Shown in pieces: positions 3,493 to 38,924 of a stretch of DNA of 64,000 nt (the stretch's first letter is position 1; the number at the start of each line of letters is the position of its first letter). Source of the stretch: a virus; the IMG/VR virus record IMGVR_UViG_3300025120_000017, positions 107,835 to 171,834 of that record; one strand, given 5' to 3'. A program made the position numbers and the translations under genes. A model generated the notes under the pieces. It was not told the DNA's origin, searched no databases, and saw only the letters and a program-made list of their open reading frames with translations.

Positions 3493-3496
3493 TTAA

Positions 3497-10485: not shown

Positions 10486-13400
10486 CTAATCTTCTGTATA
10501 TCTTATATCAACACTTAAATAAACACTTGTTCCACTTGCGGCACTTGTTTCTATCCAAACCCAACTATTTGCTGGAATAGTAGCATCACTTAATGATGCA
10601 ATATCTCCGGTTGTTGTACTTGTTGTTGCAGCACTTGTTGTTAATGCATTCCCGGCATCACTTCTAGTAGGATGATGTTTTAATTGATAAGTTGTATCTG
10701 GTGATGTTCCAGTTGAACAAGCAATTACTTCTTGTACTGTTATAGCAACATCAGTTCTAAAAATTGTAATATCATCAGAAGCTGTTGGTTCTTGTAAAGT
10801 AAATGTTTTACTTAAAGAAACTGGGGCACCTGTTCCTGTATCTCCTTTTTCTCCTTTAATACCTGAAGTCTTAGATATTCTCATACCTTGAGTAAAGTTC
10901 CAAGTACCATTTGCTGAGATAGTTGTTGTATTCTGATATGATTGCAATTTAATTTCAACTTCATCACCTACATCTAAATCAAGTGAAATACTACCCGATA
11001 CGCCATCCCAAGTAGAATCATCAACAGCATCCGACGCAGCAAAAGCACCATTTGGTGTTTTTATGCTTCCGTTAATAAATGCTTGTAAATTGTAATATGC
11101 AGAAGTACTATTTGTAGCAAATAAATTAACTTCAAATTGATAAGTTCCAGCACCACTTGTTGAGCTAACAACAAACTTTTTATTTGTATTATCCCAATCA
11201 CCGTTCTTGTCTATCGCTCCTGTTACGGTGTCATCAAAATTAATAGTAGTTGCGTTGTTAGCAACAGTAATAAGTTGGTTGGTACTTCCAAAACCTAAAT
11301 CAACAAGTAATCCACCACCTACGGCTGGCGTTTCTGATAAGTTTTTCCATTTTAATCCTGTTGCTTCCGTACTATCAGCTACTAATGCTTGTCCGTTAGT
11401 TCCAACTGGCAATCTTGCATCGGCAGTATCGTATGTATAAACATCTCCTTTTGTTGTTAATGGACTTGAACTACCAGCTGCTCCCCAAGAAAGAACTCCT
11501 GAACCATCAGTTTTCAAAAATTGTCCGTTAGAACCGGTGTCGTTTGGAAATGTTAAAGTATAACTTGCACCTGCAGAATGCGGTGGTGATTTAAGTTTTA
11601 TACCGTGATTATTATTCCAACAATTTAATTGAATATAACCATCTTGTGATGAACCATCTCCTTTTGCAATAAAAGCTGCAATAGAACTTGTAGAAGTACT
11701 ACTGACATTTCCTGTCATTTCTATTGCATTTGATGAACTAATCGTAAACGGTTCCGTTGAAGTTGTTCCGTTGTATATACGGAAAGTGCTATCGCTTTCG
11801 TTACCTATTGACCATTTAAAATTCCCTTGATTTAAAAATTTTATAAAAACTCCTGTATCAGCAGTCGTGTCTAGTGATATATTTGGGTTTGAGCTGAAAC
11901 TGCTTTTAAAAGTTAAAATATCTTTTACAGTAGAATTAAATGTAGTTGCCTGTCCTAAATGAACATTACCATCATTTCTAAAGTCCCATAACGAAGCATC
12001 ATTAATATCAGTAACTTTGAAACCACTTGTACTTGCTGAATTATCAGAACCTTTAACTAGTGTGTCGTCTTGTAGGCTAATTCCTTCGCTTCCTATGACG
12101 TTTGAACCGTTGGCAATTGTTTTTCCGTTCCTTATTCTAAAGGTTTCTAAATGCGCAAGAGTTCCAAAAATTAAACTCATATCATTTGAACCATGCCATA
12201 CATTTTGCATTCTACTAGAAAAATAACCACTAACATTAAAATCAATTGATGCTTTTTCTCCAGCTACTAAAGAGCCAGTTTTGTTTATTCTTAAAGCCGT
12301 ATGGTTTGCGCTTGTATTTTCTAAAGTTAACCCCGTAAAGGCATCACCTGCTAAACTTGAATGTATTTCTCCTGCTACATCTAAATCATAACTTGGAATT
12401 ATTTGTTTTATTCCTACTTTTCCATTCCTAATTCTAAAAGTTTCTAAATGCGCTAAAGTTCCTAATGTTAAACTAATATCATTTGAACCATGCCATACAT
12501 TTTGCATTCTACTAGAAAAATAACCACTAACATTAAAATCTATAGAAGCTTTTTCACCTGCAACTAATGAACCAGTTTTATTAATTAAAATACCTGTATG
12601 ATCTGTATTTGTGTTTTCTAAAGTTAGAGAAGGAATAGTAGAACTTGCATTTTTAAAAGTTAAATCATTACCATTTAAATCAAGTATTCTATCTCCTGTT
12701 AAAGTTCCATCAGCAGTATAAATAGAACTACCACCAGTTCCGCTAGTTCCTATTCTAACTACTCCGTTTTCATTCCATAAATCGCCAGCTGATAAACCAC
12801 TTGAGCTAGTAGGCATATTAACATTTATAGTGTTAGTTTTAACTGCTACTTTAGTTGTTACCGTTCCACTATCTGCCACCCTTAACTCTAATCTTCCCGT
12901 ATGACTACCTGCTGTATTGCTTTCAATTATTGATACAAATCTTGCATAAGTTGCCTGAGCACTGCTTGAGTTATGTAAATCAATATTGAAACCTGCTCCG
13001 TAGCCAGTTGGATTTGCTGGTCTACAAAATGTAAAAGTAGATGAGGTATTAGAATCACCTATGATATTAACATCTTGGCCTACTAGTATATCTCCGTTAT
13101 TTCTAAAGTCCCATTTAGAATCATCATTTGTATCAACTATTTTAAATCCACTTGTACTTGCTGAATTATCAGAACCTTTAACAAGGGTATTGCCTTGTAA
13201 AGAAATACTTTCACTTCCTACAACAGCATCTTCACCTACTATAAATTTATGTGTTGCTAAAGCACCAGCGGCAGCTAAAAAGTAATGCGGAACATTTGCG
13301 CCTATCTTAGTGTGTGCTCCACTCCATTGGTCAGAAAAGTGCATGTAACTTGTTGTTCCTGATCCTCTTCTTAGTTGTATTGCTTTTTGTGGTCCGATAT

Positions 13401-14054: not shown

Positions 14055-15686
14055 TTATGTAATTGCTACCGTCCATCCTTTTGCTGTTGCTATTGCTATC
14101 TCTGCACTTGTAACTGAAGATGAGCCTGGATTGTCTTGAACATTTATAGTTTGTGTTCCATTAGCTGTACCTAAATTGTTAAAAATAACTACGATTTGTG
14201 CTTGTTCTAAATTACAATATCTATATGAATGTCCTACAGTTAGGTTGGTTATTAATACTTCTTGTAAAGCATAACAGCCTTGAAACCAGTTTCCACAGCT
14301 TGTTATATTTGCACCATCCCATGCGGGTATTTTTACCAAACTCTGACAATTATTGAAGGCAGCACTAAAAGAAGTAGTTGTTGTATTAATTACAATGTTA
14401 GGCAATTCCTCCAAAGAAGTATTGCTTAAAAATACTCTAGTCATTGATGTTGGAGGGGTGCCATTAAAGGTACCCCACTTTTTTATCTGATTAGCATTTT
14501 GAGCAAAATATGGATGTATTCCTGTTCCTAATTGCGCAGGACTTTTTCTAAGACCACTATATATAAACATATACTGCATACTGGTAGATGAACTAAAATC
14601 AAATGCGCTTAAATCATCTATCCTATATGTGTTCCTAAACATAAATTGACTATTAGTTACATTACTGCAATCAAAGACCTTTACTTCTTCTAAATAAATG
14701 CATTGGTCAAACATATAATCTGTCCTAGTTAAGTTGTTTGGGAATGTGGCATTGCAGCTTATTAGATTTGTACAGCCAATAAACATACTTTTGACGTCCG
14801 TTGCACTTGAACAGTCTAAATTAAAGTCTCCACCCCACTTATTTCCTGAAAATACAGCAGTAAAGACTTGAATATTGGAACAACTTGTAATCGGACAAAC
14901 CATTAGTGTACTACAAGCATAAAACATGTTTTGAATGCTAATAAGGTTAGGGGCATCAGCATCTAAACTCCAAGGTTCTATGTATTCTATCTCATAGCAA
15001 TTGTAAAACATTTCCGTAACTCCTGTAGCACTAGATAAATCTAATTTTGGAACTTCTAATAATAATACACATTGACGAAAACACCTATAAAAATTAGTAA
15101 CATTAGAAGTATCTATTCCAACTACCTTTTGTAATCTGTAACTTAAATAAAATGCTTGCGACATGTTTGTAACATTACAAGTTCCCACAAATTCAAATTG
15201 CTCTAATCCCGAATTATTGTAAAAACTACTTGCTAATGATGTGATATTAACACTTGCCATTTTGCAATCAATGATATTATTATTTGCTGAACCTGCACTA
15301 GCATCATTAGGATTTAATAAATTACCCATAACAAAGGAAGTAAGGTTTTGCCCAGATTGAGGTGTTAATGTAACTATTGCCTGTCTGTATCCTTCAGTAG
15401 TTTGTGTTGTTGCTGAAATATGTGTAAAGTCAATAGAATAGTCTGCAAATGCTCCCGAAGAATAATTTACTGAACCCTGCCCATCACCCCAATCAACAGT
15501 ATAATCACCTGCCGCTTGTAATCTTATGTGATTGCCAAACTTTTCATATATCTTAACTAGTAGATAAACTTTTTGGTCACCATCAGATAATACAGGTAAA
15601 TCTAAATATTCAGGATTCCGAATATACTTTCTGAAAGATTTTTGCCCTCCTAATAATCTGCCGTTATTTATTATTATATTTGCCAT
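14055..15686 (-). CDS. BspA/DUF285-type leucine-rich-repeat virion adhesin
   Basis: Repeated xDxSxxTxMxxMFxxCxxL units; N-terminal YTVDWGDG; C-terminal IAIATAKGWTV. Confidence 0.75.
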   Translation of the reverse strand: MANIIINNGRLLGGQKSFRKYIRNPEYLDLPVLSDGDQKVYLLVKIYEKFGNHIRLQAAGDYTVDWGDGQGSVNYSSGAFADYSIDFTHISATTQTTEGYRQAIVTLTPQSGQNLTSFVMGNLLNPNDASAGSANNNIIDCKMASVNITSLASSFYNNSGLEQFEFVGTCNVTNMSQAFYLSYRLQKVVGIDTSNVTNFYRCFRQCVLLLEVPKLDLSSATGVTEMFYNCYEIEYIEPWSLDADAPNLISIQNMFYACSTLMVCPITSCSNIQVFTAVFSGNKWGGDFNLDCSSATDVKSMFIGCTNLISCNATFPNNLTRTDYMFDQCIYLEEVKVFDCSNVTNSQFMFRNTYRIDDLSAFDFSSSTSMQYMFIYSGLRKSPAQLGTGIHPYFAQNANQIKKWGTFNGTPPTSMTRVFLSNTSLEELPNIVINTTTTSFSAAFNNCQSLVKIPAWDGANITSCGNWFQGCYALQEVLITNLTVGHSYRYCNLEQAQIVVIFNNLGTANGTQTINVQDNPGSSSVTSAEIAIATAKGWTVAIT

Positions 15687-15701
15687 AATTTATGTTATTT
15701 A

Positions 15702-18700
15702 TCATCCTCTAATTAATCTAATCCAAGTATTATCTGCAACTGCAGTAAACCAATAGTTTCCATTGTAATGTGATTGTCCTTGATAGGTTCCTGTTATTGT
15801 ACTTCCTGTATAATTACCATTAACATCCCAATTAGATGTTGTTTCTAATAATGTTGCTACTGCTCCTGCTGATAGATAGGCTTCAATTATTGGAATTTCT
15901 GAAACTTGTCCAACTCCAGCACTAGTTTTACCTAACATACAGGGCTGAGTAACATCTTGCATTTTATCGTAAGTAACTTTATCAGCTCCAATGGTAACCA
16001 CTCCAGTATTACTTATTGTAGTGTCTCCACTCATTGCTACCGAAGTTGCAGCGTTTGAAGAGTTACCTACAAATATTTGTCCATTATTTAAAGTTGGTGT
16101 TCCACCTCCACCAGCTTCAGATACACCATAACATTCCCATTTACTTGTGTCGGTGCTATATCTAAATCTCGCAGCTACTACATCACCAACTATAGTTGTG
16201 TTTGGAAGGGTTATACCATTAATTCCAGTGTAAATAGCATTCCAAGTAATTGCTCTAGCAGTGCCATCATCATCTAATCGAAACTCAAGTCTTTGTCCAT
16301 TTCTAGGAGTTCCTGTTGGAGCATTTATACCTACTGCACCACCTAGTGCCTGATAATCAACAAAGTCTGTGAAGTCTCCATCCCAACTTGCCGATGTGCC
16401 TGTATTTTCAAAAGTCCTTACAATCTTAGTATAATCTCTAAGATTGTCCATTTCTACCTTTTTCTTATTATTAGAATCAAATATATCCTCAATAAGCATT
16501 ACTTCCCCGCCAACAAGAACTGTCTTCTGTGTGATAGGAGTAATTTCTGAAGCTTTATTGCTATGTATTGCAGTATCAAATTCAGTATAAAAATTTAAGT
16601 ACTTAATAGCACCTTGATTTGCATCATCTCTTATCATTACTTGTGCTGCTGTACTTCCGCTATATAAAGGAAGAGTTTGGGTAAGTGACCATGCTGGGGA
16701 ATCTAATACTACACTAGATTCATTAATTGTAATGCTTGATGTATCACCGCCAGTGCCTCCATAATGTTCAAGTTTTATAGATGCATCTTGTAAACTAATT
16801 TTTCTATGAGATGCATCAGATATTTTAGTTTGTTTCCAAAACGCTGAACCTGTCCCAAAAATATTTGATTGGTCCCATTCTACAGTATGAAATTGGCTAT
16901 TATTTTTAATATTACTTTTATATGCATCAAAATAGTAGTCTTGAGCATATAAGTTTCTTGTAGATGTTCCTTTATTTAATGCATATGGTACTGCAGTTGG
17001 TCCGTTTATCCAACCTGAAAATAATTTAGATCCACTTACAGTAATGCCTGGTGTTCCTGGGTTTGTTGCTCCTGGAGTACCACTATATATTTCTAAGTAT
17101 ACTGGCTTTCCTGTAGATGTAGCGCCTATCTGGTCAGTCTTTGCTCTTGCGCTTGAATCCGTTGCACCTGAGTAACTATCATTAACAACACTTTGCCAAT
17201 CTTGCACAGATCCTGAAGGGCCTGTTGGTCCTGGTACAGTGCTTTGTGCACCTGTATTACCTTGAACTCCTTGAACTCCTTGAATTCCTTGAGATCCTTG
17301 TGGTCCTGTAACTCCTATTAGTCCTGTAGGACCAACTACCGTACTTGCGGCTCCTGTTGGGCCAGCAACACCTTGGGCTCCTGTTGGTCCTATTGGCCCT
17401 TGAGCTCCAGTAGTTCCTATTGTACCTACAGGTCCCTGTGGCCCAGTAGCTCCAATAGCTCCAGGCGTTCCGGCCGATCCTGTCGGTCCTTGTGCACCTG
17501 TTACCCCAGTTCCCAATACGCCAGTTGGCACAATCGTCCAATCAGAATTTGTACCTCCTAAAGAAGATACATAAAAAGGTGTATCTAATGTTATATCCCC
17601 GCTTCCTGGACTATATCCAATAACTTTACAATCTGCAAATTGATTAGGAATGTTGTCATTTATAATTCTAGCAAACTGACCTGGTGCAAATGCTTGACCT
17701 GATGGAAATGAAGTAATAGTAAGAGGGTTAATATCAATTAATCCAAATGATTGTGTACTTCTTATTATTGCGCCTGCGCCTGTTAGCCCTTGTGCACCGT
17801 TAAGACCATTAAATCCAGTTACTCCTGTCGCTCCTTGACTTCCTTGGAGTCCTGAGATTCCTTGAGCTCCTGTAGGTCCAGCAGGACCTACAGGACCACC
17901 GCTTGGTCCTGTTGGGCCAATTGCAGTAGCACCTGTGGCACCTATTGGCCCAGTTACTCCTTGAGGCCCTGTTGGTCCTGGTAAACCAGTACCTGTAATT
18001 ACCCAGCTATTTGATGGGTTGGTATCAGCACCTGGATTTATATAAAAAGGTGCATCAAATTGTAATGCGCCAGTATTGTTATTAAATGAAGATACTCTAC
18101 TTACTTGAAAATCACTAGGTGATAAAGTTTTTGAAATCTGTACATATGAGCCTACCACGAATGCAGTACCATATGAATTGGTTCCAATATTAGGTACTAC
18201 ATTAAGTTGAGATGTACTTCCGTTATTCAATGAAAATAGAGTTGCAGATGTTGCATATAATCCAGGGCCACTAGCACCAGCTGCACCTGTTACTCCTATT
18301 CCTGTAGGTCCTGCTGGTCCTGCTACTGTACTATTTGCACCTGTTGCTCCTGTTACTCCAGTACCTGTAGCTCCTATCGGTCCTGTAGGTCCTATTGGTC
18401 CTGGAACAGTAGATTGAGCTCCTTGAGTTCCTTGAATTCCTTGAATTCCTTGAGCTCCTGTAGGTCCTGCCACTGTACTATTTGCACCTGTTGGTCCTGT
18501 TACTCCAATTCCTGTTGCTCCAACAGGTCCAATATTACCTTGACTACCTGTAGCTCCAGTAGGTCCTGTAACACCAGGAACGCCACTACCACCTACGCCT
18601 ATTTTTGTCCAATCTAATGGATCAAATGTTGCTTTCTGTGTATCGAATTTTGCTATGTAATTGTAGGGTCCTAGTCCATCATCATAAAGAACTACCATAT

Positions 18701-18815
18701 CTTTTTTATATGGATAGTTAGCTGACCACTGTTCTTTATACCTAAAGTTATTATCTAACTCTGTATGAGTTAGTGGCCTATTTTTGTTACCTCTATAATT
18801 AATTTTATCTGCCAT
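15702..18815 (-). CDS. Collagen-like (Gly-X-Y) fibre protein
   Basis: Several GPTGAT/GIQ tracts; N-terminal RPLTHTELDNNF motif of T4-like structural proteins. Confidence 0.85.
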   Translation of the reverse strand: MADKINYRGNKNRPLTHTELDNNFRYKEQWSANYPYKKDMVVLYDDGLGPYNYIAKFDTQKATFDPLDWTKIGVGGSGVPGVTGPTGATGSQGNIGPVGATGIGVTGPTGANSTVAGPTGAQGIQGIQGTQGAQSTVPGPIGPTGPIGATGTGVTGATGANSTVAGPAGPTGIGVTGAAGASGPGLYATSATLFSLNNGSTSQLNVVPNIGTNSYGTAFVVGSYVQISKTLSPSDFQVSRVSSFNNNTGALQFDAPFYINPGADTNPSNSWVITGTGLPGPTGPQGVTGPIGATGATAIGPTGPSGGPVGPAGPTGAQGISGLQGSQGATGVTGFNGLNGAQGLTGAGAIIRSTQSFGLIDINPLTITSFPSGQAFAPGQFARIINDNIPNQFADCKVIGYSPGSGDITLDTPFYVSSLGGTNSDWTIVPTGVLGTGVTGAQGPTGSAGTPGAIGATGPQGPVGTIGTTGAQGPIGPTGAQGVAGPTGAASTVVGPTGLIGVTGPQGSQGIQGVQGVQGNTGAQSTVPGPTGPSGSVQDWQSVVNDSYSGATDSSARAKTDQIGATSTGKPVYLEIYSGTPGATNPGTPGITVSGSKLFSGWINGPTAVPYALNKGTSTRNLYAQDYYFDAYKSNIKNNSQFHTVEWDQSNIFGTGSAFWKQTKISDASHRKISLQDASIKLEHYGGTGGDTSSITINESSVVLDSPAWSLTQTLPLYSGSTAAQVMIRDDANQGAIKYLNFYTEFDTAIHSNKASEITPITQKTVLVGGEVMLIEDIFDSNNKKKVEMDNLRDYTKIVRTFENTGTSASWDGDFTDFVDYQALGGAVGINAPTGTPRNGQRLEFRLDDDGTARAITWNAIYTGINGITLPNTTIVGDVVAARFRYSTDTSKWECYGVSEAGGGGTPTLNNGQIFVGNSSNAATSVAMSGDTTISNTGVVTIGADKVTYDKMQDVTQPCMLGKTSAGVGQVSEIPIIEAYLSAGAVATLLETTSNWDVNGNYTGSTITGTYQGQSHYNGNYWFTAVADNTWIRLIRG

Positions 18816-19432: not shown

Positions 19433-20677
19433 TTAGAATAATGATTTTGTTTTTATAATGTTTAGCTTCTGTTCTGTTGATTTGTTAGAAACTATTTCTA
19501 TATTCTTAGAGAGTGCTTTAAATAGGCTTGATGCATATTGACCGTTAAAATATACATCATCAAGATACTTCTTATATAAATGAACTCTAAGCTGTTTGTA
19601 TTTTTCTGGATTTTGCTCCAATGCTTTTATTTTAGTGTGTAGCTCTTTAGAGTTTTTAACTCTTAAAAAGTCATGTAAATCTAGGTTATTCTGTGTATCA
19701 TAAGTTTCATGAACAAACGGTATCATACCATGATAAACAACTTCTCTAAATTTTGTAGTTACTGGACCTTTTGTGTTTCCTACAACAAGAGTATACTTAA
19801 ATTTTTGAGCCAATGGATCTAATTCATGAAATTTAACCACTCCTTTGATTTGAGAATGTGCATTAAGAACTTCTTCTTTCCAATTTCCATAAATATGAGC
19901 TTCTTGATTAACATCATAATCTAATACATATTCTTGTAAGATTTTTAATCTATCTTGAGATGATGCATTCCCTTGATTAAGAATTAGCCCTATCTTTATT
20001 GGTTTTTCAATGGATAACCATGAATCAAGATCTAGTTTATTCTTATCATATAATATTGTAGCATCTAATTTAGAGTAAATTTCTTTAACTTTATCAACCT
20101 TTTTAGTATTATCACCTTTTGCAATTATACTCTTTATTTCATGCTCTTGTTCCCAAACACTGATGCATCTTCTAGGTGGATTAATTAAATCAACTGATGC
20201 ATATGGAAAGTAGTTTTTATCTACACATAGCATATCAAAAGTTATCTTACTTTCATTAAGATAAGAAAACATTGGACCTACATAATTCTTTAACATATCA
20301 AGAGGTGTACCCATTTTATTAGAATCACTCTCAAGAGGCGTATGATTAGGAATATTTGTTCTTCCTACAGGACCTGTGTATATTAATCCATAATCTATTG
20401 TAATATTCATTCTTTTAAAGAACTCATATGGAAATCTCCACATATCACAATGATAGTCTTCAGTGTTATAGAATTGCCAAATATCAATTAAATTATCTGC
20501 TATATTTAACTTTTTTCTTGTTAAGTCATTTTTACCTATACAATAAAAAGTAATATTTGGATTAGCTTTAATTATTGGGTAATATATGTTATATGCATCA
20601 CAATCACCACCTTTTCCATTCCATGATTTAGTATCAAATGATAAAGATTTACCTATTTTACCTATTACTACGTTCAT
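19433..20677 (-). CDS. T4 beta-glucosyltransferase-like (GT-B) DNA-modifying enzyme
   Basis: C-terminal TTKFREVVYHGMIPFVHETYD...FLRVKNSKELHTKIKALEQNPE resembles the C-terminus of T4 BGT; adjacent to a DNA methyltransferase. Confidence 0.6.
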   Translation of the reverse strand: MNVVIGKIGKSLSFDTKSWNGKGGDCDAYNIYYPIIKANPNITFYCIGKNDLTRKKLNIADNLIDIWQFYNTEDYHCDMWRFPYEFFKRMNITIDYGLIYTGPVGRTNIPNHTPLESDSNKMGTPLDMLKNYVGPMFSYLNESKITFDMLCVDKNYFPYASVDLINPPRRCISVWEQEHEIKSIIAKGDNTKKVDKVKEIYSKLDATILYDKNKLDLDSWLSIEKPIKIGLILNQGNASSQDRLKILQEYVLDYDVNQEAHIYGNWKEEVLNAHSQIKGVVKFHELDPLAQKFKYTLVVGNTKGPVTTKFREVVYHGMIPFVHETYDTQNNLDLHDFLRVKNSKELHTKIKALEQNPEKYKQLRVHLYKKYLDDVYFNGQYASSLFKALSKNIEIVSNKSTEQKLNIIKTKSLF

Positions 20678-20678
20678 T

Positions 20679-21959
20679 CTAAAATAACTTTTTGCTTTTT
20701 ATAGCAGGTTCAACATCGCCTAAAACAATTTTTTGAGCACAATTATCTTGCATTAAATATCGGGTATTACTTAATGGTAATTCACCGTTTAAAAATTTAA
20801 CAACCTCATGAGTCCAATCAGCTGCAGTATTTACTGGGACATTTTGAGTAATTGCATGAATTTCAGATTTACCTTTAATTTCAAAATCATGAGGAAATCC
20901 CATTAAGTGTAGCATTTCTCTAACATTTAGATACCTATTTTCATTTGGATTAATAAAACTTGCTACAGATTTTGAAATTAACGCATTCATACAATCTCCA
21001 TTAAACTGTGGAGATTCATCCCAATATCCACCTGCTTGTCTAACTTTTACTTTATCCCAAATTCTATCAATCTTTGCTTTGATTCTACGTTTTCTATCTT
21101 TTTCATCTAATGTATCATATCCTTTCTTTGAAAACCATTGACAGAATTCATCATATAATTCTTCTTCTAATATAGTTTCAACAGTAGAGAATTTTTTACC
21201 ACCAGTTTTCTTTAAGAAGTCTGTATAGCTTAACCCACTCCTTTCAATAAGAAACTCAAATGTAGGAAATGCATCAGTTGGTGATAACTCGTTTGAATAT
21301 AAATCTCTAAGAGATGCAGTATCAGGAATATCATTTAAGTATTCTATTAAGGATTTTCTTTCTCTATCATAATAACCTAATATTGGAGATGCATCAGATT
21401 TCCAGAAAAAATAAAAACTTCTTGTTCTATTTTGTGGTATTCCATGTAACTTTGTACTTGTTTTAATAACACTATAACTATAATTATGCTTTTCAGCAAT
21501 AAGTCTTAGTCTTTCACGAACACCTGCACCTAGTTTTGTAAAAAACCCTGGAGCATTTTCTCCAAACATTACTTTAGGTTTTACTGTACCTAAAACAAAC
21601 TCAGTACTTTTATACATCCATTCGTTTTGAGCAGCATCTGATCCTCTACTACTTGCACTTTTGCCATTTGATGCATTAAGCATTGATAAACCTGCACATG
21701 GACAAGTACTACTTACAATATCAACATCAGTAAGTCTTTCCCCATTATTTGCATCTATTAATTCATTAGTTTCTGCATCGATAGTAATATATGGAATATC
21801 AAGTCCTTTATTTTCATAATGTCTTAATAATAAACCATCATTAAAACCAAATGCAGGATAAGATAAGATATATTCAGGAGGAGTTCCTAATTCTTTCTCA
21901 ACTCCTATAGGTAATCCTCCTATAAGTGGAATAATTGCAGCATGCTTGTATTTTTTCAT
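20679..21959 (-). CDS. DNA cytosine-C5 methyltransferase-fold enzyme with atypical motif I
   Basis: CPCAGLS (IV), ENAPG (VI), PQNRTR (VIII), RYLNVREMLHLMGFP (IX), QNVPV (X); motif I reads IIPLIGG instead of FxGxGG. Confidence 0.85.
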   Translation of the reverse strand: MKKYKHAAIIPLIGGLPIGVEKELGTPPEYILSYPAFGFNDGLLLRHYENKGLDIPYITIDAETNELIDANNGERLTDVDIVSSTCPCAGLSMLNASNGKSASSRGSDAAQNEWMYKSTEFVLGTVKPKVMFGENAPGFFTKLGAGVRERLRLIAEKHNYSYSVIKTSTKLHGIPQNRTRSFYFFWKSDASPILGYYDRERKSLIEYLNDIPDTASLRDLYSNELSPTDAFPTFEFLIERSGLSYTDFLKKTGGKKFSTVETILEEELYDEFCQWFSKKGYDTLDEKDRKRRIKAKIDRIWDKVKVRQAGGYWDESPQFNGDCMNALISKSVASFINPNENRYLNVREMLHLMGFPHDFEIKGKSEIHAITQNVPVNTAADWTHEVVKFLNGELPLSNTRYLMQDNCAQKIVLGDVEPAIKSKKLF

Positions 21960-23311
21960 AACTTTAATTTTTTCAGAATGTATTTTTTAATGCTATCTTT
22001 ATTGTTTAAATCATTAAATCCCATGTATTGTTTTATTTCATCAATAATTTCTTGAGCTTCTTCAGGATTTTGATTAAAATATTTTATCTTTTGATTAATT
22101 TCACTAGAATTTTTTACTCTTAAAATATCATTAAATTTAGATGGCAACTGTTTATTTAACGGGTCATAATCGTGAGCAACAAGAGGTAAATTATTTAGAG
22201 ATACTGCCTGTGCAATTCTTCTATGATAACTATTATTAATTATAGGAGATGGAACAAAAGAATACTTATGTCTAATAAATTGTTTTGTACATTCATCATA
22301 TGTTACTTCAATTCCTTTATGAAACTTGTTGTTTAATATATGTTCATAAGTACTTGGTGCTTTTAGTTCATTACCTTTAATCTTTTTATAATATAAAGAA
22401 TGTGGCCCATCAGCTATATTCATAATATAGTCTTCATACATTTTTATCCTAGATTCGTTTCTTTCACTTGATACGGTGCCACAAAAAAGTAAATCCATTT
22501 TCTTATCCTTAAATTTTAATAGTGGATTATTAAATAAGCCTGTGCTTAAATGGCTTTGTGTAACATACCCATGTTTAATAACATCAACTTTAAAATCTTC
22601 AGTAATTGGATAATACATATCATCAGCTGCAAATGTATAAAGGTTTTCTCTGTATAGTTTACTATACCTAGGATCAGGTGAAAATATATGCACAGATTTA
22701 CCTAACCTATTAAGAATATACATTGTACATCTATATAAATTCATAGATAGTCCAATATATCCACCTAAATTAAAACCAGGCTCGTGACTATTCCATAACT
22801 CTAAGAAATCTTTTGCGCCTCTGGCATTTCTTTTAATTCTAACACCTCCTTTAAATTGTTCAATTCCTTTTACATTATTATATGCAACATAAGATTGTGC
22901 AAATGTAAATGTTGACCTACAACTAAAATCAACTACTAATGTAATGTTAAGAGGGTTAATAACGTTTTCTATAATATTGAAAATGCTTTCACGATGTTCA
23001 GCGAATTCTTCTTTAAGAATTAAACTATCACCTTCAAGCTTAATTAAGATAATTCCATTTCCATGATTTTTTAATTTATCACTATTGTATGTAGTGATAG
23101 ATCCTGTTATAAAGATAATATTATAATCATCTTTTATAAAAGGTAAAATACAATCAGTAAAGTCTTCATGATGCTCAGATTCTAAATCTAATTGTTGATA
23201 TACTTTACTATATCCTAAAGGAAATAATAGAGTTTTCTTACTATTAAGAGAGTTAAGTTCTTTATATTCAACAATTAATCTGTCTAATGGGTTTTTAATT
23301 ATCGTTTTCAT
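21956..23311 (-). CDS. Second BGT-like (GT-B) glycosyltransferase
   Basis: DLLFCGT; RRIAQAVSLNNLPLVAHDYDP...LRVKNSSEINQKIKYFNQNPE parallels the C-terminus of the 19433 gene. Confidence 0.55.
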   Translation of the reverse strand: MKTIIKNPLDRLIVEYKELNSLNSKKTLLFPLGYSKVYQQLDLESEHHEDFTDCILPFIKDDYNIIFITGSITTYNSDKLKNHGNGIILIKLEGDSLILKEEFAEHRESIFNIIENVINPLNITLVVDFSCRSTFTFAQSYVAYNNVKGIEQFKGGVRIKRNARGAKDFLELWNSHEPGFNLGGYIGLSMNLYRCTMYILNRLGKSVHIFSPDPRYSKLYRENLYTFAADDMYYPITEDFKVDVIKHGYVTQSHLSTGLFNNPLLKFKDKKMDLLFCGTVSSERNESRIKMYEDYIMNIADGPHSLYYKKIKGNELKAPSTYEHILNNKFHKGIEVTYDECTKQFIRHKYSFVPSPIINNSYHRRIAQAVSLNNLPLVAHDYDPLNKQLPSKFNDILRVKNSSEINQKIKYFNQNPEEAQEIIDEIKQYMGFNDLNNKDSIKKYILKKLKL

Positions 23312-23804
23312 TAATGTATCCTACATTCAGGTTTTTGTTATTTTCTTCTAATTGACATCGCTTTCTTAAATCAGATGAACTGTATGGATGTCTTCTAGTA
23401 TTGTATTTTATTTCAATTTCATTGATATACTTACCTGTGAAATCTTTATCTCTATATTCTTCTCCAACTAATCTGATTTTAGGTAATAGAGTAAGTAATG
23501 CATTTTCTAAATCTTTCTCTGAATCAAGCGGAATTACCTCATCTATATATTCTACTGAGTTTAATTGTCCCCACCTTTCAAATAAGCTCTGTACTGGTTT
23601 ATTCTTTGTTTCTGGTCTATCAATCGTTGCATCATTAATTAAACCAACAACAAGATAGTCTCCAAGAGACCTTGCTTTATAATAAAGATCAATATGTCCT
23701 ATATGGTTTAATTCACCGCAAGTGCTAGTAAAAATAATATCAAGTTCATTAACATTCTTTCCTAGCTCTTTAGCACGCTTTTGTAATAATTTAAAGTTTA
23801 GCAT
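23295..23804 (-). CDS. Cytidylyltransferase (TagD/glycerol-3-phosphate CT-like)
   Basis: HIGH motif; GDYLVVGL; KPVQSLFER; RRHPYSSSDLR. Confidence 0.85.
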   Translation of the reverse strand: MLNFKLLQKRAKELGKNVNELDIIFTSTCGELNHIGHIDLYYKARSLGDYLVVGLINDATIDRPETKNKPVQSLFERWGQLNSVEYIDEVIPLDSEKDLENALLTLLPKIRLVGEEYRDKDFTGKYINEIEIKYNTRRHPYSSSDLRKRCQLEENNKNLNVGYINENDN

Positions 23805-24879
23805 TAATAAGATCTTTAGTTATATTTAAGTATTTTTTAAAATTAGGATCATTTGTATGATATTTTAAGATTCTAACCCATTGAGTTGTTTCAAGAATTT
23901 TTAGTACTTTATTCAATAGAGATTTATCAAGATCATCGGTATATCGCTTCATTACATACCTACAGTATGATTGTAATCCGCTATTATTATGTTTTCTTCC
24001 ACTATGTGATAGTTTCGCAATATCAAGATATACTGATGAATACAGGTCTTTTATATAGATAGGATCAATTAAAACAAGACCTTTAGTTTTATTAAAGATC
24101 ATATTTTCTATTGAGAAATCACCATGCATAAAAGATTTGTGCATATTCATAAAAGGAGTAATTCTATGCATATTTTCTAATAATAACATTCTTTCATCAT
24201 TTAATAAATGCCCAGACTCAACATTGATCTTTAGATGTGAATCTATTCTATCTATATATGTAATAAAATCAGATCCTAGTGATGGAGTTGATGCAATACA
24301 GTTTAGTTCATTGCCTATTGCATGGAAATTAAGAATATCATCATGTTTAATGTATTCCATTCTTAAGGTATTTCCTACAAGACTTTTAATTTCCGGAATA
24401 CTTAATCCTGCTGACTCTGCTTTAATGTACCATTTACTAGCTTCTCTGCTATCTGTATGTGTTTTGTAAATTTCATTGCCATGTTTTTCAACTATTGCAC
24501 CACTCTTACCTCTTTTAATAGGAGTTATATCAATGTTTAAAAACTCTTCAGGAAGAATTCCTTTATCATCAATGTAATATGCAGCAAGTGGCTTATTGAA
24601 ACTTAACTCATTATAAATAAGACCATGAAAGTTTAAGAATTGTTCTATGTTCTTTCTATATTTTTTATCAGCTTCTTTTCGACTATCGCATGAAATAGAC
24701 CCTCTTGCTGTTAAAACAAGAATATACCAACCATTCTTTTGTAATTCATTCAGTCTTTTAATAAGTTCTTTATTAACATCAGCGCTTTCCCAGTTTCGGG
24801 TTTTAGTAAAGCTAAGAGTATCATCAAAATCAACACATATGATTTTACTCATGTCTTGTGGTCTTTCTTTATAAAACAT
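23791..24879 (-). CDS. HAD phosphatase fused to an APH/choline-kinase-like domain
   Basis: DFDDTL, LTARG, KP..YYIDDK (HAD); HGDFSIENM and LIDP (kinase). Confidence 0.8.
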   Translation of the reverse strand: MFYKERPQDMSKIICVDFDDTLSFTKTRNWESADVNKELIKRLNELQKNGWYILVLTARGSISCDSRKEADKKYRKNIEQFLNFHGLIYNELSFNKPLAAYYIDDKGILPEEFLNIDITPIKRGKSGAIVEKHGNEIYKTHTDSREASKWYIKAESAGLSIPEIKSLVGNTLRMEYIKHDDILNFHAIGNELNCIASTPSLGSDFITYIDRIDSHLKINVESGHLLNDERMLLLENMHRITPFMNMHKSFMHGDFSIENMIFNKTKGLVLIDPIYIKDLYSSVYLDIAKLSHSGRKHNNSGLQSYCRYVMKRYTDDLDKSLLNKVLKILETTQWVRILKYHTNDPNFKKYLNITKDLINAKL

Positions 24880-25408
24880 TATAAGAATTCATTAAGTTAA
24901 GAATGTGTATTTGTTTTAAGATTGATGCAATTCTTTTTGCCATATGATTTTTAGATATAGCAATACGTTCTTCGGTCATTTCAAGACCTAAATATATTTT
25001 ATAAATATCATCACCTTTTAAATTAAGCTGGGTTAAGCTATTTATAATATCTACATCAAAAGAGTTTTCATACTTAATACTTCCTGTTGTTTCTATATAT
25101 GCTTTATTAAACTCTTCAATAGTAAAAGATGCATATCCATTATCTTCTAAGATTGCATTAATTTCAGAAATCCTATAAGCAATTGCATCTAATAAATTGT
25201 CTTCTTTATGGTTATATTTTTGCCTACTTAGTTTTAATCCATATAAATATCTAAAGCTATTTAATTGAGATTCTTTATCGCATTCAATATTTAAGAATTC
25301 TGAAATATTAGTAGCTGCTTTCATTCCTTCTATCATAGGACCATATTGCCTAGTTTTCTCTTCAGATCTAGAATTAATGATCTGATTTGCTTTTTCTACT
25401 AATGACAT
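24869..25408 (-). CDS. DUF6378-like nucleotide-modification-associated protein
   Basis: ANQIINSRSEEKTRQYG...LKLSRQKYNHKEDNLLDAIAY. Confidence 0.6.
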   Translation of the reverse strand: MSLVEKANQIINSRSEEKTRQYGPMIEGMKAATNISEFLNIECDKESQLNSFRYLYGLKLSRQKYNHKEDNLLDAIAYRISEINAILEDNGYASFTIEEFNKAYIETTGSIKYENSFDVDIINSLTQLNLKGDDIYKIYLGLEMTEERIAISKNHMAKRIASILKQIHILNLMNSYNVL

Positions 25409-26225: not shown

Positions 26226-26432
26226 TTATTCCATTATTTGCATAAAGAAATCTTCAAGATCTTGAATAGTGCTATTATTTTCTATAAGTGATGCTTCCCC
26301 ATTAACAGATTCATACCAAATTATTTCATCAGGTATTTTAATATCTGCAAATTTTGAAAATTGTCTTATGTATGTAGACTCTTTATGTTGTATTGTGTAT
26401 ATTGCATTATATTGGGCTGTTATGATTTTCAT
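26226..26432 (-). CDS. Hypothetical protein
   Basis: 68 aa, coupled to the GT2 gene. Confidence 0.55.
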   Translation of the reverse strand: MKIITAQYNAIYTIQHKESTYIRQFSKFADIKIPDEIIWYESVNGEASLIENNSTIQDLEDFFMQIME

Positions 26433-27127
26433 TTAAAAACTCCTATTATTTTTTTTATTTTGTAATTTTTATGACCAGGTAATCTGCTACTATTAACAAA
26501 CAATTCCTCTTTATGATATGATGTTGATACGTTAGTATCATGAAGAAAGTATACATATAACTCAGGATCTTGATATGAAACTGCCTTATGTTTAGTAAAT
26601 AGCTCTTTAAGTACAGGAGTATCTTCATATCTCTGCATGTTTGAATATAATGGCATAATATCTCTTCTACACATTAATGATCCTTCCCAACCTTCAAGAC
26701 GGTCAAAGCTTAACCTAACTTCATCTTTAGCTGATGAAAATAATAAAAGACTTCTTAATGTACATCCATCTAATCCATCTTCAAGTATTTTATTAAGTTG
26801 TGATTCAATACGGATAGGTGAATAGTAATCATCATCGTCCCATATTATAACATAATCACCACTTGCCTTACTTATCAAGTGATTTCTTAATGATCCTAGG
26901 TAGATTCCATCTTGTGGTATATGCTTAAATATTCTGATATTATTTTTATTTCTCCAAAACTTATCTAAGCTGTTTAAATATTTCATGGTTTCACTATCAT
27001 TACTGTAATACATTATTAACATTTCTTTGTTAATATGAGTTTGATTAAGATAATGATTTATAGATGTTTTAAGAAATTCACACCTATTTTTTGTTACTGT
27101 TATTGTACTTACTTTAATGCTTTTCAT
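26429..27127 (-). CDS. Family 2 glycosyltransferase
   Basis: VSTITVTKNR; GSLRN; WDDDD; ED motif. Confidence 0.85.
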   Translation of the reverse strand: MKSIKVSTITVTKNRCEFLKTSINHYLNQTHINKEMLIMYYSNDSETMKYLNSLDKFWRNKNNIRIFKHIPQDGIYLGSLRNHLISKASGDYVIIWDDDDYYSPIRIESQLNKILEDGLDGCTLRSLLLFSSAKDEVRLSFDRLEGWEGSLMCRRDIMPLYSNMQRYEDTPVLKELFTKHKAVSYQDPELYVYFLHDTNVSTSYHKEELFVNSSRLPGHKNYKIKKIIGVFK

Positions 27128-27804
27128 ATCTTAGGTCTATGTATTCCAATTAAATTACGTCTTGGAATTGTTGCTGGGTCTACATTTAGAGGAAACAAGT
27201 GCACTACATCAGATTCAATAAACTTAAGTTTATTACTATTGCTGCTTATAGTGCCATTCCATTCATTTGTTAAAATACAGTCTTCATATACAATAGGTAA
27301 AATTCTAAAAAGTACCTCATTATCCCCCCAACAGTTAAGAAATAACTCACGTTCTGTCCATTCATTATAATCAGGATTAGCTTCTTTAAATAATTTCATG
27401 ACATTATGATATGAAGAGCATTCTTTAATATATGCTTTAACGCCTTTATTTTTTTTAACTGAACCCATAAAGCCATTTTGTAACCACCATGTATCAGTCC
27501 TACTCACAAAAAAATCACAATTAAGAAGGTCTTCATTCATTCTTTTGTATGGCTTAATATCAACATCAATGTATATTCCACCTTCTTGATATAAAATATT
27601 AGCCCTAACCCAGTCACACACAAACCTATATTCATTAAGTTCTATCGCAGCTTTAACAAACGCATTTTCGCCAAAGTCGTTTTCTCGCCATAATTTATAT
27701 TCAAAATCTGGATACTTTTCTTTCCATTGATTAGCCCATTCTAGACATTGAGCAGGCGGCTCTTTATCTCCTAACCAAACTTGATGAATCTTTTTTGGTA
27801 TCAT
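27124..27804 (-). CDS. DXD glycosyltransferase (GT32/Och1-like)
   Basis: MIPKKIHQVWLG; DWVR..ILYQEGGIYIDVD. Confidence 0.85.
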   Translation of the reverse strand: MIPKKIHQVWLGDKEPPAQCLEWANQWKEKYPDFEYKLWRENDFGENAFVKAAIELNEYRFVCDWVRANILYQEGGIYIDVDIKPYKRMNEDLLNCDFFVSRTDTWWLQNGFMGSVKKNKGVKAYIKECSSYHNVMKLFKEANPDYNEWTERELFLNCWGDNEVLFRILPIVYEDCILTNEWNGTISSNSNKLKFIESDVVHLFPLNVDPATIPRRNLIGIHRPKI

Positions 27805-28805: not shown

Positions 28806-30512
28806 TCATCCATCACAACTAGAACACTCCATTAAATTACGTTTAAATTCTTGTGCTGCATTAACGTTATTTTGATAATATAGTGACTTAACACCCATGT
28901 CTGCAGCTTCTAAATATAATGCATTTACATCTTTTGTTGGAGTTCGTGGGTCAATTGTTAAATTTAAACTCTGGCCTTGACAGATATATCTTTGTCTTTG
29001 AGCAGCTTGTTGAATTATTGTTAGTTGACTGATTTCTCTAAATGTTTTAAAAACATTCTTTTCATGTTCAGATAGAAATTTTAAATGCTGTACAGATCCA
29101 TCCTTTTCAAGTATTGATAGCCATGTTTTTCTATCATTTTTATTATTTAACTTAAGTACTTTTTCTAAATAAGGATTTTTAAAAGTTGTCTTTATTTTAG
29201 CAAGATCTTTTACATAAATATTACTTGTAAAAGGTTCTATACCTAAAGATGCTTGACCCATTATAAAGGCGCTTGATTTAGTTGGAGCTATTGCAAGTAG
29301 TGTAGTATTTCTTCTACCATATCCTTCTAATACATCAGGCTCACCATATATCTCTGCTAATTTTTCTGAAGCAGTATATGCGGTTTCTTTTAAATTTGAA
29401 AATATTTGATTATTTAACTGCATTGCATCAAAGCTTTCAAATGCTAAGTTTTTACTTTGTAATAATGAATGCCATCCTATAACACCCATTCCTAGTGCCC
29501 TATGCCGCTTTGCAAAATTATAAGTTCTTTGCATAAAATACCACACATGCTGATCCTCTCTGCTGCTGCTAGATTTATAGGCTTCAAGCTTTTCAATAAA
29601 CTCTGACATAACAGCATCTAAAAAGAAAGTCATAACCTCCACAGCATCAGTGTCTTTCCACTCATCATAATAAACTAGGTTTAATGAACTTAAACAACAA
29701 ACAAAACTTTCTTCAGAATTACTAGGCAGCATAATTTCACTGCAAAGATTAGAAGCATATATCTTCATATCTTTATCCTTATAAACATCTACAGTGTTTT
29801 CATTTGCATTATCTTTAAATAAGATATATGGAGCACCAATTTCACCTCTCACAGTTAACAGCTTTGCCCATACCTTTCTTTTAGCTTTATCACCTGCTTT
29901 CATTTCTTCAAGCCATTGTTTCCCTACACAAACTCCATAAAACATTAATTGAATTGGGTTACCTTCAAGCTGTATCTCTAACCATTCATTAATGTCATCA
30001 TGTTCAATGTCTATATAACCAGCAAACTGGCCTCTACGTGTAGTTCCTTGGCTAATAACATCTATTGATGTATCAAATTTCCTAGCAAATGGAAATGATC
30101 CATTACTTTCTCCATTACCTGAAATAGATTTTCCTCTACCTCGAATGTGTCCAAAATATCCTGATGCACCGCCGCCCATTTTTGACATCATATCAACTTC
30201 GCTATTTGCATAACTAATACCACCTACACTATCTTCAATATAACTACCAAAACAGCTAATAGGTAAACCACGCTTATTTCCAAAGTTTGACCATATCGGA
30301 GAGCTTAAAGAAAACCATCCTTTACTCATATAATCTTTAAACTTATCAGCATAATTATAATCTTTTAATTGTAAGATCTTTTCTGCATGTATTGCTATTT
30401 CATTAAGCCTATCTTCAGGTGTTTGATTACTACCTAAATACCCACCATTTAAGAATGTTCTACTATGCTCGTTTAACCATTGATATGGTTCTCTATCTTT
30501 AGAATAAGTCAT
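28806..30512 (-). CDS. nrdA: Class I ribonucleotide reductase alpha subunit (no ATP cone)
   Basis: PISCF; SNLCSEI; VCCLSSLN; APTKSS; KSLYY; C-terminal CSSC. Confidence 0.95.
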   Translation of the reverse strand: MTYSKDREPYQWLNEHSRTFLNGGYLGSNQTPEDRLNEIAIHAEKILQLKDYNYADKFKDYMSKGWFSLSSPIWSNFGNKRGLPISCFGSYIEDSVGGISYANSEVDMMSKMGGGASGYFGHIRGRGKSISGNGESNGSFPFARKFDTSIDVISQGTTRRGQFAGYIDIEHDDINEWLEIQLEGNPIQLMFYGVCVGKQWLEEMKAGDKAKRKVWAKLLTVRGEIGAPYILFKDNANENTVDVYKDKDMKIYASNLCSEIMLPSNSEESFVCCLSSLNLVYYDEWKDTDAVEVMTFFLDAVMSEFIEKLEAYKSSSSREDQHVWYFMQRTYNFAKRHRALGMGVIGWHSLLQSKNLAFESFDAMQLNNQIFSNLKETAYTASEKLAEIYGEPDVLEGYGRRNTTLLAIAPTKSSAFIMGQASLGIEPFTSNIYVKDLAKIKTTFKNPYLEKVLKLNNKNDRKTWLSILEKDGSVQHLKFLSEHEKNVFKTFREISQLTIIQQAAQRQRYICQGQSLNLTIDPRTPTKDVNALYLEAADMGVKSLYYQNNVNAAQEFKRNLMECSSCDG

Positions 30513-31473
30513 CTTCTGTTATACTTTTTGTTTTTTTACTGTATGCAGTGCTTCTTTTAACAAAGAAATCATTTTCTTTGGTTCCTATCATTTCTTCATC
30601 AAACCAAACAGTTTCATTTAGTAGTTCTTCACTAACTTCAAAAATTGGTTCAATGTCTAATGATGCTAATGCGTTATTAAACCTGTTTTTAATAAAGTTT
30701 TTTACTATGTCTTTTGACATAAACTCTAGTTCGCCTTTTTCAAATATCCAATCTAATATTTTACATTCAGCCTTTTCTGCTTTTTTACAAGCTTTAACTA
30801 TATCATCAGTAAGATCTCCATCAAACCAATCAGGAAATTCATTTTTGATTATCTTAACAATTTCAACACCAAATTGACCATGAATCTCCTCTTCTTTACT
30901 AGTTGCTTCAACTATATTAGAAAGTCCACTAAACATTTTCTTATGCTTATTAAAACTCATCATAATTAAGAACTGTGAAAACAAGGAAACATGCTCTATA
31001 AAAACTGCAAATAGCAATACTGATAGCGCATACTTTTTGTTATCTCTACTTCTAGAACCACTTAAATACTTAGTTAAATAATCAACACGGTCTTTAATTG
31101 CTGGAACTTCCATAATAGATCTAAACTCATCATTTAGACCAAGTCTTTCTAATAAAAAAGCATATGCATCAGCATGTCTTACTTCACTTTCAGCAAACGT
31201 CATTCCAACTGCGCCTATTTCTGGCTTTGGCATTCTCTTGTATATATCAGCCCAAAAAGTTTTTACTGAAATTTCAATTTGTGAAATAGCAAGCATTGCT
31301 CTCTTTATTGCCTCTCTTTCACTATTACTTATGTTCACTAAAAAATTTTGTACATCTGATTCTACATTAAATTCTGTATGTAACCAATATGAATGCCGTA
31401 TAGCATCTTTAAATCTTAATAATTCAGGATATTCATTTGGTTTATATGCAACTCTCTTATCAAAAATTCCCAT
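30499..31473 (-). CDS. nrdB: Class I ribonucleotide reductase beta subunit
   Basis: ESEVRHADAY; EHVSLFSQF; EEEIH; DFFVKRSTAY. Confidence 0.95.
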   Translation of the reverse strand: MGIFDKRVAYKPNEYPELLRFKDAIRHSYWLHTEFNVESDVQNFLVNISNSEREAIKRAMLAISQIEISVKTFWADIYKRMPKPEIGAVGMTFAESEVRHADAYAFLLERLGLNDEFRSIMEVPAIKDRVDYLTKYLSGSRSRDNKKYALSVLLFAVFIEHVSLFSQFLIMMSFNKHKKMFSGLSNIVEATSKEEEIHGQFGVEIVKIIKNEFPDWFDGDLTDDIVKACKKAEKAECKILDWIFEKGELEFMSKDIVKNFIKNRFNNALASLDIEPIFEVSEELLNETVWFDEEMIGTKENDFFVKRSTAYSKKTKSITEDDLF

Positions 31474-38917: not shown

Positions 38918-38924
38918 TAAATAA

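Follow-up and report, generated by a model that had tools for sequence, protein, structure and literature searches.

Hypermodification of DNA is a main route by which phages escape restriction and CRISPR, and it is a source of enzymes for sequencing epigenomes. The 5-hydroxymethylcytosine (5hmC) handle is known to arise in two ways: thymidylate-synthase homologues act on nucleotides, or a methyltransferase and a TET enzyme act on DNA. We investigated a 64,000-nt stretch of viral DNA (hereafter, the window), which is the last 64 kb of the 171,834-bp IMG/VR record IMGVR_UViG_3300025120_000017 (about 30% G+C; estimated to be 67% complete). Here, we discuss its gene P0001, whose product is a C5-methyltransferase-fold enzyme with non-canonical cofactor motifs. 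The gene content of relatives indicates that the P0001 clade is a fixed part of hydroxymethylcytosine (hmC)-type clusters without TET, which serve glycosylation or, in one lineage, phosphorylation. To our knowledge, no described scheme explains the combination of a methyltransferase homologue with the nucleotide route in the absence of TET. A description of the clade was not found in the searchable full-text literature.

Among the described systems, the T4 5hmC pathway (gp42, the gp56 dCTPase, and alpha- and beta-glucosyltransferases) resembles the record in its gp42-like enzyme, dCMP deaminase, weak dCTPase-like gene, and transferases similar to T4 beta-glucosyltransferase (BGT). However, a methyltransferase homologue is an invariant member of the module here, whereas T4, as far as we know, has no C5-methyltransferase homologue. 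Clusters that combine a C5-methyltransferase, TET/5mYOX, and a glycosyltransferase or kinase (Burke et al. 2021, PMC8256090; Pyle et al. 2023, bioRxiv) likewise group a methyltransferase homologue, in metagenomic phages, with sugar-nucleotide genes and with glycosyltransferases or kinases that act on DNA; on this point, Pyle et al. report merely methyltransferases near some glycosyltransferase-containing contigs. Unlike those clusters, the system described here gave no TET/JBP match in any of 44 records, relies instead on an Asp-type thymidylate-synthase homologue (the pre-replicative 5hmC route), and has non-canonical cofactor motifs.

P0001 shares with M.HhaI, M.HaeIII, and Dcm (PF00145) the two-domain fold, the PC cysteine, the ENx glutamate, the QxRxR arginine pair, and a large target-recognition domain between motifs VIII and IX, but it has IPLIGG for FxGxGG, Ala/Ser/Gly for the Gln after the catalytic Cys, and Gln for the motif X Asn; its sequence identity to bacterial C5-methyltransferases is 13–19%. 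The motifs of P0001 are IIPLIGG (residues 9–15), STCPCAGLS with PC at 87–88 (Cys88), GENAPG (133–138; Glu134), PQNRTR (175–180), and TQNVP (371–375; Gln372). A first-pass annotation made from the sequence of the window had described intact PC, ENxxG, and QxRxR motifs next to an IIPLIGG motif I and a TQNVP motif X, in place of FxGxGG and GNxV, and each of these readings was confirmed in P0001; missing from it was the replacement of Gln after the catalytic Cys.

Conservation was evaluated in 157 distinct homologues (36–88% identity) and in 145 representatives that were at most 50% identical pairwise. P11, L12, G14, G15, P87, C88, E134, R178, and R180 were each 100% conserved in the 157 homologues, as were Q372, N373, V374, and P375 in the motif X region, and the catalytic motifs IV, VI, and VIII (P87-C88, E134-N135, and Q176/R178/R180) were conserved at 99–100%. 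The residue following the catalytic Cys was Ala in 99% of the homologues and Ala, Ser, or Gly in all 145 representatives, never the canonical Gln. The representatives displayed the same motifs (xPLxGG, C-(A/S/G)-G-L-S, ENAP, PQ, and Q(N)VP), and the family consensus of motif I was (I/V)-P-L-(I/V)-G-G. A word-indexed search returned 1,834 homologues, a profile search of 1.84 billion cluster representatives gave 450 family matches at E < 1e-30, and 438 IMG/VR loci encode the family. Since the odd cofactor motifs are invariant across a phage family of this size (about 450 clusters at 50% identity), we conclude that they are selected and not the result of drift. The target-base side is canonical and kept, whereas the cofactor side is conserved but non-canonical.

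Pfam PF00145 matched P0001 with an E-value of 3.4e-15 (56.7 bits; cut-off, 22) over residues 69–378; because the match starts at residue 69, the N-terminal cofactor part (the first 68 residues) is unmatched. The NCBIfam model dcm (TIGR00675) gave 49 bits, far under its cut-off of 100.65 bits. The AlphaFold2 model of P0001, with 39 homologues in the alignment, had a predicted local distance difference test score (pLDDT) of 86.9 and a predicted template modelling score of 0.87, and its top Foldseek matches were M.HaeIII (E 1e-12), MET1, DIM2, and M.HhaI. In VIA-align, the model gave Z 24.1 with CmoX (8YF3) and Z 23.8 with M.HhaI over model residues 1–393, with a root-mean-square deviation of 3.2 Å over about 290 residues and 15–16% identity. 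On the evidence of this model, P0001 is a complete two-domain C5-methyltransferase fold. When the family alignment was compared with E. coli Dcm by hhalign, motifs IV–VIII alone were aligned (probability, 20%), and single-sequence phmmer against the PDB aligned the N-terminus of neither P0001 nor a homologue. A family-profile search extended to HhaI residue 42, in a register that conflicts with the AlphaFold2 strand register.

We mapped the cofactor-side positions onto M.HhaI. In the alignment coordinates of family members that reach the N-terminus, Pfam profile positions 7–12 (F-x-G-x-G-G) fall on I-P-L-I-G-G, with the first Gly of motif I (HhaI Gly20) on Leu12, a Leu in 100% of members, and the stacking Phe18 on Ile or Val. 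In an ungapped HMMER alignment to M.HaeIII (IGNAVPV versus IAQNVPV), Gln372 pairs with the motif X Asn (HhaI Asn304). Three positions near the transferable group are rewritten: Leu stands for HhaI Gly20, Ala for Gln82, and Gln for Asn304. In M.HhaI, Gln82 and Asn304 flank the transferred group, the Q82A change cuts methylation approximately 16-fold, and the engineered Q82A/N304A enzyme transfers extended groups (PMC3526304). The AlphaFold2 model has a strand at 31–33 and a helix at 35–50, and by this secondary-structure register the ribose-binding Glu40 of HhaI would fall on Tyr34; this position is Tyr, Trp, or Phe in 99% of members, and an invariant N40-E/D41 lies seven residues beyond. Conversely, P0001 retains, as judged from its motifs, all the residues for cytosine flipping, Cys88 attack on C6, and Glu134 protonation of N3.

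CmoX is the best structural match of P0001 and also a precedent for an altered cofactor side. It is a phage DNA cytosine C5-carboxymethyltransferase that has an altered motif X residue, transfers a non-methyl group, and makes a product that is a handle for hypermodification; Arg at the Asn304 position selects carboxy-SAM (a carboxylated form of S-adenosylmethionine, SAM) and contacts its carboxyl group (Yang et al. 2025, PMC12783734). Sequence similarity between the family profile and CmoX was marginal (E 2e-4). Whereas CmoX has this Arg and a neighbouring CmoA, P0001 and its homologues have Gln in 100% of cases, with no CmoA found in the record, and a dCMP hydroxymethylase accompanies them together with glycosyltransferases or a kinase. 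No CmoA was present among the conserved neighbours of the P0001 family in the neighbour clusters.

We then turned to the genes on either side of P0001, whose positions are listed in Table 1. The P0002 ATG lies 1 nt past the P0001 stop codon, and the P0003 stop overlaps the P0001 start codon (ATGA); in this arrangement, the P0001 gene is predicted to be translationally coupled to BGT-like genes on both sides. The flanking glycosyltransferases named in the first-pass annotation were indeed BGT-like: the four best PDB matches (Foldseek ranks 1–4) of the P0002 model were T4 beta-glucosyltransferase (E 7.5e-8). P0002 belongs to neighbour cluster 2, the conserved partner of the family, which occurs in 52 of 81 loci, and P0003, a diverged paralogue upstream of the P0001 gene, has a BLAST link to the 470-aa neighbour cluster 30 and a weak Glyco_trans_1_2 match. 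A predicted complex of P0001 and P0002 from separate alignments had an ipSAE of 0.00, which counts neither for nor against an interaction.

Neighbouring genes were clustered for 80 IMG/VR loci, of which the 62 with at least three genes on each side were informative; BGT-like genes were detected with a hidden Markov model of the P0002/P0003 family within a limit of six genes. A BGT-like gene lay within this limit in 50 of the 62 loci, which bears out the co-occurrence of PLIGG-type homologues and BGT-like genes that the first-pass annotation had raised, and a gene resembling 5-hydroxymethyldeoxyuridine (5-hmdU) DNA kinase lay directly upstream in eight more (PF18723 helical domain, E 3e-7). One or the other partner was thus within six genes in 58 of the 62 loci. 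The clusters that house the family are devoted to making sugar-nucleotides. Recurrent neighbours comprised nucleotidyltransferases, HAD phosphatases, APH-like kinases, epimerases, aminotransferases, acetyltransferases, and further glycosyltransferases, as well as inositol-1-phosphate synthase, thymidine kinase, dUTPase/DCD, a dNMP-kinase-like protein, and a thymidylate-synthase homologue. The pocket motifs were nearly identical with a glycosyltransferase or a kinase as partner, and they were unchanged across pathways for amino sugars, 3-deoxy-D-manno-octulosonate (Kdo)-type sugars, inositol, and heptose-like sugars. This constancy suggests that the co-substrate of the enzyme is universal or absent.

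From their gene content, the cultured phages that carry the module are Pseudoalteromonas phage vB_Psh_XG4 and cyanophage S-TIM5/S-TIM54. The XG4 operon encodes an Asp-type thymidylate-synthase homologue, a HAD-like protein, a nucleotidyltransferase/APH-like kinase fusion, a BGT-like protein, a second GT-B protein, and a PLIGG-type methyltransferase homologue. In S-TIM54, an IIPLVGG homologue is two genes from an Asp-type thymidylate-synthase homologue. Bacillus phage G gp301 is 26% identical and has FIFGG as motif I and AQGVP as motif X; it is four genes from gp306, an annotated alpha-glucosyltransferase, and gp309, annotated as a glucose-1-phosphate thymidylyltransferase, is nearby (region L115, 1835-7128).

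In the jumbo-phage lineage of loci L078–L087 (e.g., L083:8054-9499), the gene directly upstream of the methyltransferase homologue matches PF18723, the helical domain of 5-hmdU DNA kinase, and adjoins genes for inositol-1-phosphate synthase, an FkbM methyltransferase, and thymidine kinase. This recalls thymidine hypermodification by 5-HMUDK and an amino-acid:DNA transferase, in which the 5-CH2-OH is phosphorylated and an exocyclic methylene is an intermediate (Lee et al. 2021, PMC8989533), and the logic of activating 5-CH2-OH via an exocyclic methylene would be shared. The base, however, would be cytosine, and the next enzyme has a methyltransferase fold, not the helix-hairpin-helix aGPT-Pplase fold. 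The L078–L087 module may be a cytosine counterpart of that pathway.

We also examined where the hydroxymethyl group could come from. One thymidylate-synthase-fold gene in the record encodes P0123, a gp42-type dCMP hydroxymethylase homologue, which contains RSNDLVFGFCND (RSND....GFCND); Asp occupies the E. coli Asn177 position, and Asp169 is kept. As in gp42, the context of its catalytic Cys is D-x-x-C-T-N, with the Asp three residues before the Cys, and T4 dCMP hydroxymethylase (1B49) is its best PDB match. Asp at the Asn177 position together with a retained Asp169 marks a dCMP-specific thymidylate-synthase homologue (Lee et al. 2026, PMC13326640), and P0123 is dCMP-specific by this sequence criterion. 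A role of P0123-type homologues as 5-hydroxycytosine synthases was rejected, as the diagnostic Asp169-to-Asn change is absent. With the dCMP deaminase, the stand-alone glycine-cleavage H protein (GcvH), and the dUTPase_2-like gene, the gp42-type gene looks like a T4-like cytosine-replacement toolkit.

The related records form a set of 43 of at least 40 kb, one of which is a complete 293-kb genome. A thymidylate-synthase-fold gene was found in 26 of the 43; among the 14 with a completeness of 40% or more, 13 had one. Every divergent copy had RSND....G...D, and the extra high-scoring copies were ordinary ThyA. TET/JBP (Tet_JBP, PF12851) had no match over cut-off in the 172-kb record or the 43 related records; a TET-like oxidase, which the first-pass annotation had named, together with ordinary 5mC formation, as a finding that would speak against its proposal, was thus not seen in any of the 44. 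A second canonical C5-methyltransferase gene was not found in the 43 related records either. In the 172-kb record (67% complete), neither CmoA (TIGR00740) nor 2OG-FeII_Oxy_3 gave a match, and PhyH had none in the record or in control genomes, so that its absence is uninformative. Separately, the group A contigs (L005/L006) carry a PhyH-family 2-oxoglutarate oxygenase (12585-13361) and an Hc1 histone-like protein (3354-3530) within the sugar cluster; the record that holds the window yielded no counterpart.

The hydroxyl handle would most simply be pre-replicative 5hmC, as in T4. Because a gp42-type dCMP hydroxymethylase gene is present in nearly all sufficiently complete genomes, P0001 need not supply the handle. 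The first-pass annotation had proposed that the enzyme uses a non-SAM or modified cofactor and directly creates the hydroxyl handle for the flanking glycosyltransferases: its first half agrees with the family-wide rewiring of the cofactor side, whereas the second is not needed, as the gp42-type gene could account for the handle.

Several family members depart from P0001 in architecture. Five long members from metagenomes and EukProt (P0060, P0068, P0163, P0205, and P0091; about 570–710 aa) retain PLIGG. Of their C-terminal extensions, those of P0060, P0068, and P0205 have weak, sub-cut-off C2H2 zinc-finger matches, that of P0163 has a CXXC zinc finger (Pfam), and that of P0091, from a eukaryotic transcriptome collection, has no zinc-finger match. 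Large extensions without annotation occur in two family representatives (768 and 1,462 aa), and L055, L059, and L060 each have a tandem pair of adjoining methyltransferase-homologue copies. Pfam revealed no enzyme fusion informative on function in the longer members, solely C-terminal CXXC or C2H2 zinc fingers.

Ordinary methyl transfer is an unlikely role for P0001, because the SAM loop has Leu at a position that otherwise requires Gly, the Gln by which methyl transfer is promoted is missing, and 5hmC DNA offers a C5-methylase no substrate. We propose, at a chance that we put just short of even, that P0001 uses Cys–C6 covalent chemistry on the one-carbon handle of cytosine or 5hmC, not Dcm-type methyl transfer. 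Cys88 would form an adduct with C6 of a flipped cytosine, and reaction would follow at the one-carbon handle on C5. In one variant, which taken alone we regard as rather doubtful, cytosines that escape pre-replicative replacement would be hydroxymethylated after replication from a universal one-carbon donor, creating substrate for the neighbouring transferases. In the other, which we hold to be doubtful to a greater degree, 5hmC would be activated via an exocyclic-methylene intermediate, and its hydroxyl or an ester of it would be exchanged. Both variants would belong to the ‘atypical’ reactions of C5-methyltransferases, which, when deprived of SAM in vitro, hydroxymethylate cytosine and substitute the 5hmC hydroxyl: M.HhaI hydroxymethylates GCGC sites, and engineered M.SssI couples thiols to 5hmC (PMC7176277).

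Several points weigh against this proposal, and some of them speak for an ordinary SAM-dependent 5-methylcytosine methyltransferase of a divergent phage clade, which would act on residual cytosine or other cytosine-containing DNA, with the cluster being a DNA-modification island. If cytosine is fully replaced by 5hmC, the hydroxymethylation variant would have little substrate, and the exchange variant comes without a nucleophile that we could name. The loss of SAM binding is a prediction from motifs and the secondary-structure register; the invariant N40-E/D41 looks like the ‘NE’ of canonical motif II, P0001 may still bind an adenosyl cofactor, and the changes of Gln82 to Ala and Asn304 to Gln could compensate for each other and preserve a methyl-sized pocket. 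Some long members resemble ordinary eukaryotic DNA methyltransferases in bearing CXXC or C2H2 zinc fingers. Moreover, the PF00145 match is over cut-off, the fold and catalytic residues are complete, databases name the homologues ‘site-specific DNA-cytosine methylase’, and the dCTPase evidence in the record is weak, so that replacement by 5hmC may be partial. What argues against an ordinary methylase is that motif I has Leu for its first Gly and Ile or Val for the stacking Phe, that the Gln important for methyl transfer by M.HhaI is never present, that the position of the ribose-binding Glu would be taken by Tyr or Trp in the secondary-structure register, and that the gene is coupled to BGT-like genes and accompanied by hmC modules in at least five divergent synteny groups. 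The 80 loci form approximately five synteny groups, and the co-occurrence counts are not independent; nevertheless, the association with hmC modules spans deep divergence. On balance, we consider an ordinary methylase improbable, yet it is the main competitor of our proposal and a serious one.

A special donor could also be imagined, from which a group larger than methyl would be passed to unmodified C5: either a modified SAM, of which the carboxy-SAM of CmoX is an example, or a nucleotide-sugar that the cluster produces, resulting in C-glycosylation or alkylation. CmoX, in which a single change at the Asn304 position switches the donor (PMC12783734), and the extended-group transfer by Q82A/N304A M.HhaI (PMC3526304) are precedents, and a nucleotidyltransferase, a kinase, and a phosphatase are always near the gene. 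Nevertheless, we consider this very unlikely: no CmoA was found in the record, the conserved neighbour clusters contain no cofactor-making gene besides sugar-activation enzymes, the Asn304 position is Gln rather than Arg or Lys, and the pocket motifs keep their form in clusters with very different sugar pathways and in those with the kinase partner. The nucleotide-sugar donor in particular was down-weighted, given that the pocket motifs do not vary with sugar pathway or partner type. It is more improbable still that P0001 is non-catalytic or serves purely as a base-flipping accessory, offering 5hmC to the transferases next to it. The tight coupling to BGT-like genes and the altered cofactor pocket would fit such a role, but T4 BGT flips its own substrate base, and 100% conservation of the Cys, the Glu, and both Arg over about 450 clusters at 50% identity is unexpected in a non-catalyst. 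Cys–C6 chemistry at the one-carbon handle, in either variant, is the reading that we carry forward.

Table 1. Features of the window and related loci (window positions unless a locus is named).
Feature	Coordinates	Strand	Evidence or remark
P0001, C5-methyltransferase-fold enzyme with non-canonical cofactor motifs	20679..21959	-	426 aa; PF00145, AlphaFold2, VIA-align, invariant motifs
P0002, BGT-like GT-B glycosyltransferase	19433..20677	-	414 aa; AlphaFold2 pLDDT 79.4; Foldseek; neighbour cluster 2
P0003, second diverged BGT-like transferase	21956..23311	-	451 aa; BLASTP to P0002 E 3e-8, C-terminal domain
Sugar-phosphate adenylyl/cytidylyltransferase-like enzyme	23295..23804	-	169 aa; Pfam CTP_transf_like E 4.9e-9
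HAD phosphatase (N-terminal) + APH/Bud32-like kinase (C-terminal) fusion	23791..24879	-	362 aa; NCBIfam, PHROG
DUF6378-like small protein	24869..25408	-	weak Pfam DUF6378 E 0.005; neighbour cluster 28, 11 loci
GT-A glycosyltransferase, family 2	26429..27127	-	Pfam Glycos_transf_2 E 2.1e-14
GT-A glycosyltransferase with DXD sugar-binding region	27124..27804	-	Pfam TcdA_TcdB catalytic glycosyltransferase E 1e-9; Gly_transf_sug E 7.5e-8
1,037-aa collagen triple-helix-repeat protein and 543-aa DUF285 protein	14055-18815	-	adjoin the modification cluster on its downstream side
Ribonucleotide reductase large and small subunits, terminase large subunit, SbcD-like DNA repair exonuclease, metallophosphoesterase	28806-31473; 33625-35526; 37769-39665	-; +; +	flank the cluster
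P0123, gp42-type dCMP hydroxymethylase homologue	G000:C1:10858-11529 (outside window)	-	thymidylate-synthase fold; RSNDLVFGFCND; best PDB match 1B49
dCMP deaminase	G000:C1:5901-6308 (outside window)	-	
Stand-alone glycine-cleavage H protein (GcvH)	G000:C1:7558-7929 (outside window)	-	
dUTPase_2/dCTPase-like gene upstream of DNA polymerase gene	G000:C1:58008-58487 (outside window)	-	159 aa; weak dUTPase_2, E 2e-4, 22.1 bits (cut-off 22.9 bits)
Module of Pseudoalteromonas phage vB_Psh_XG4 (PP712099.1, record unannotated)	L002 100-6580		compact six-gene operon

Further genes of the cluster suggest how its sugars are prepared. The adenylyl/cytidylyltransferase-like product matched PHROG heptose-1-P adenylyltransferase (E 4e-28) and, under cut-off, NCBIfam rfaE_dom_II (E 2e-16). 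The phosphatase/kinase fusion, which is likely involved in sugar activation, matched an NCBIfam capsule biosynthesis phosphatase (E 7.8e-11; residues 12-122) and had weak APH/Bud32 matches at 235-327. The DUF6378-like protein also adjoins the Asp-type thymidylate-synthase gene in related phages. The collagen-repeat and DUF285 proteins are probably tail fibre or surface proteins. Outside the window, a second glycan-type operon (G000:C1:58523-61511, + strand), divergent from the dCTPase-like/polymerase unit, encodes a Methyltransf_24 protein, two GT2 proteins, and a weak sulfotransferase match.

If our proposal is correct, P0001 would be the first natural C5-methyltransferase-fold enzyme to abandon methyl transfer, its Cys–C6 adduct acting on the hydroxymethyl handle of DNA cytosine, either by hydroxymethylating stray cytosines or by converting 5hmC or its phosphate ester to another 5-substituted cytosine via an exocyclic methylene, as an integral part of phage DNA glycosylation or phosphorylation. 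We advance this statement tentatively, with doubt outweighing belief. The family is common in marine viromes (about 450 clusters at 50% identity; 438 IMG/VR loci), and all its members are currently labelled as ordinary site-specific cytosine methylases in databases. Hydroxymethyl installation or exchange on DNA would constitute new natural chemistry and a ready tool for sequence-directed DNA derivatisation without SAM analogues. If P0001 is a plain methylase, the textbook FxGxGG and PCQ motifs would be dispensable for SAM-dependent methylation, and some ‘hmC’ phages would bear mixed cytosine modifications.

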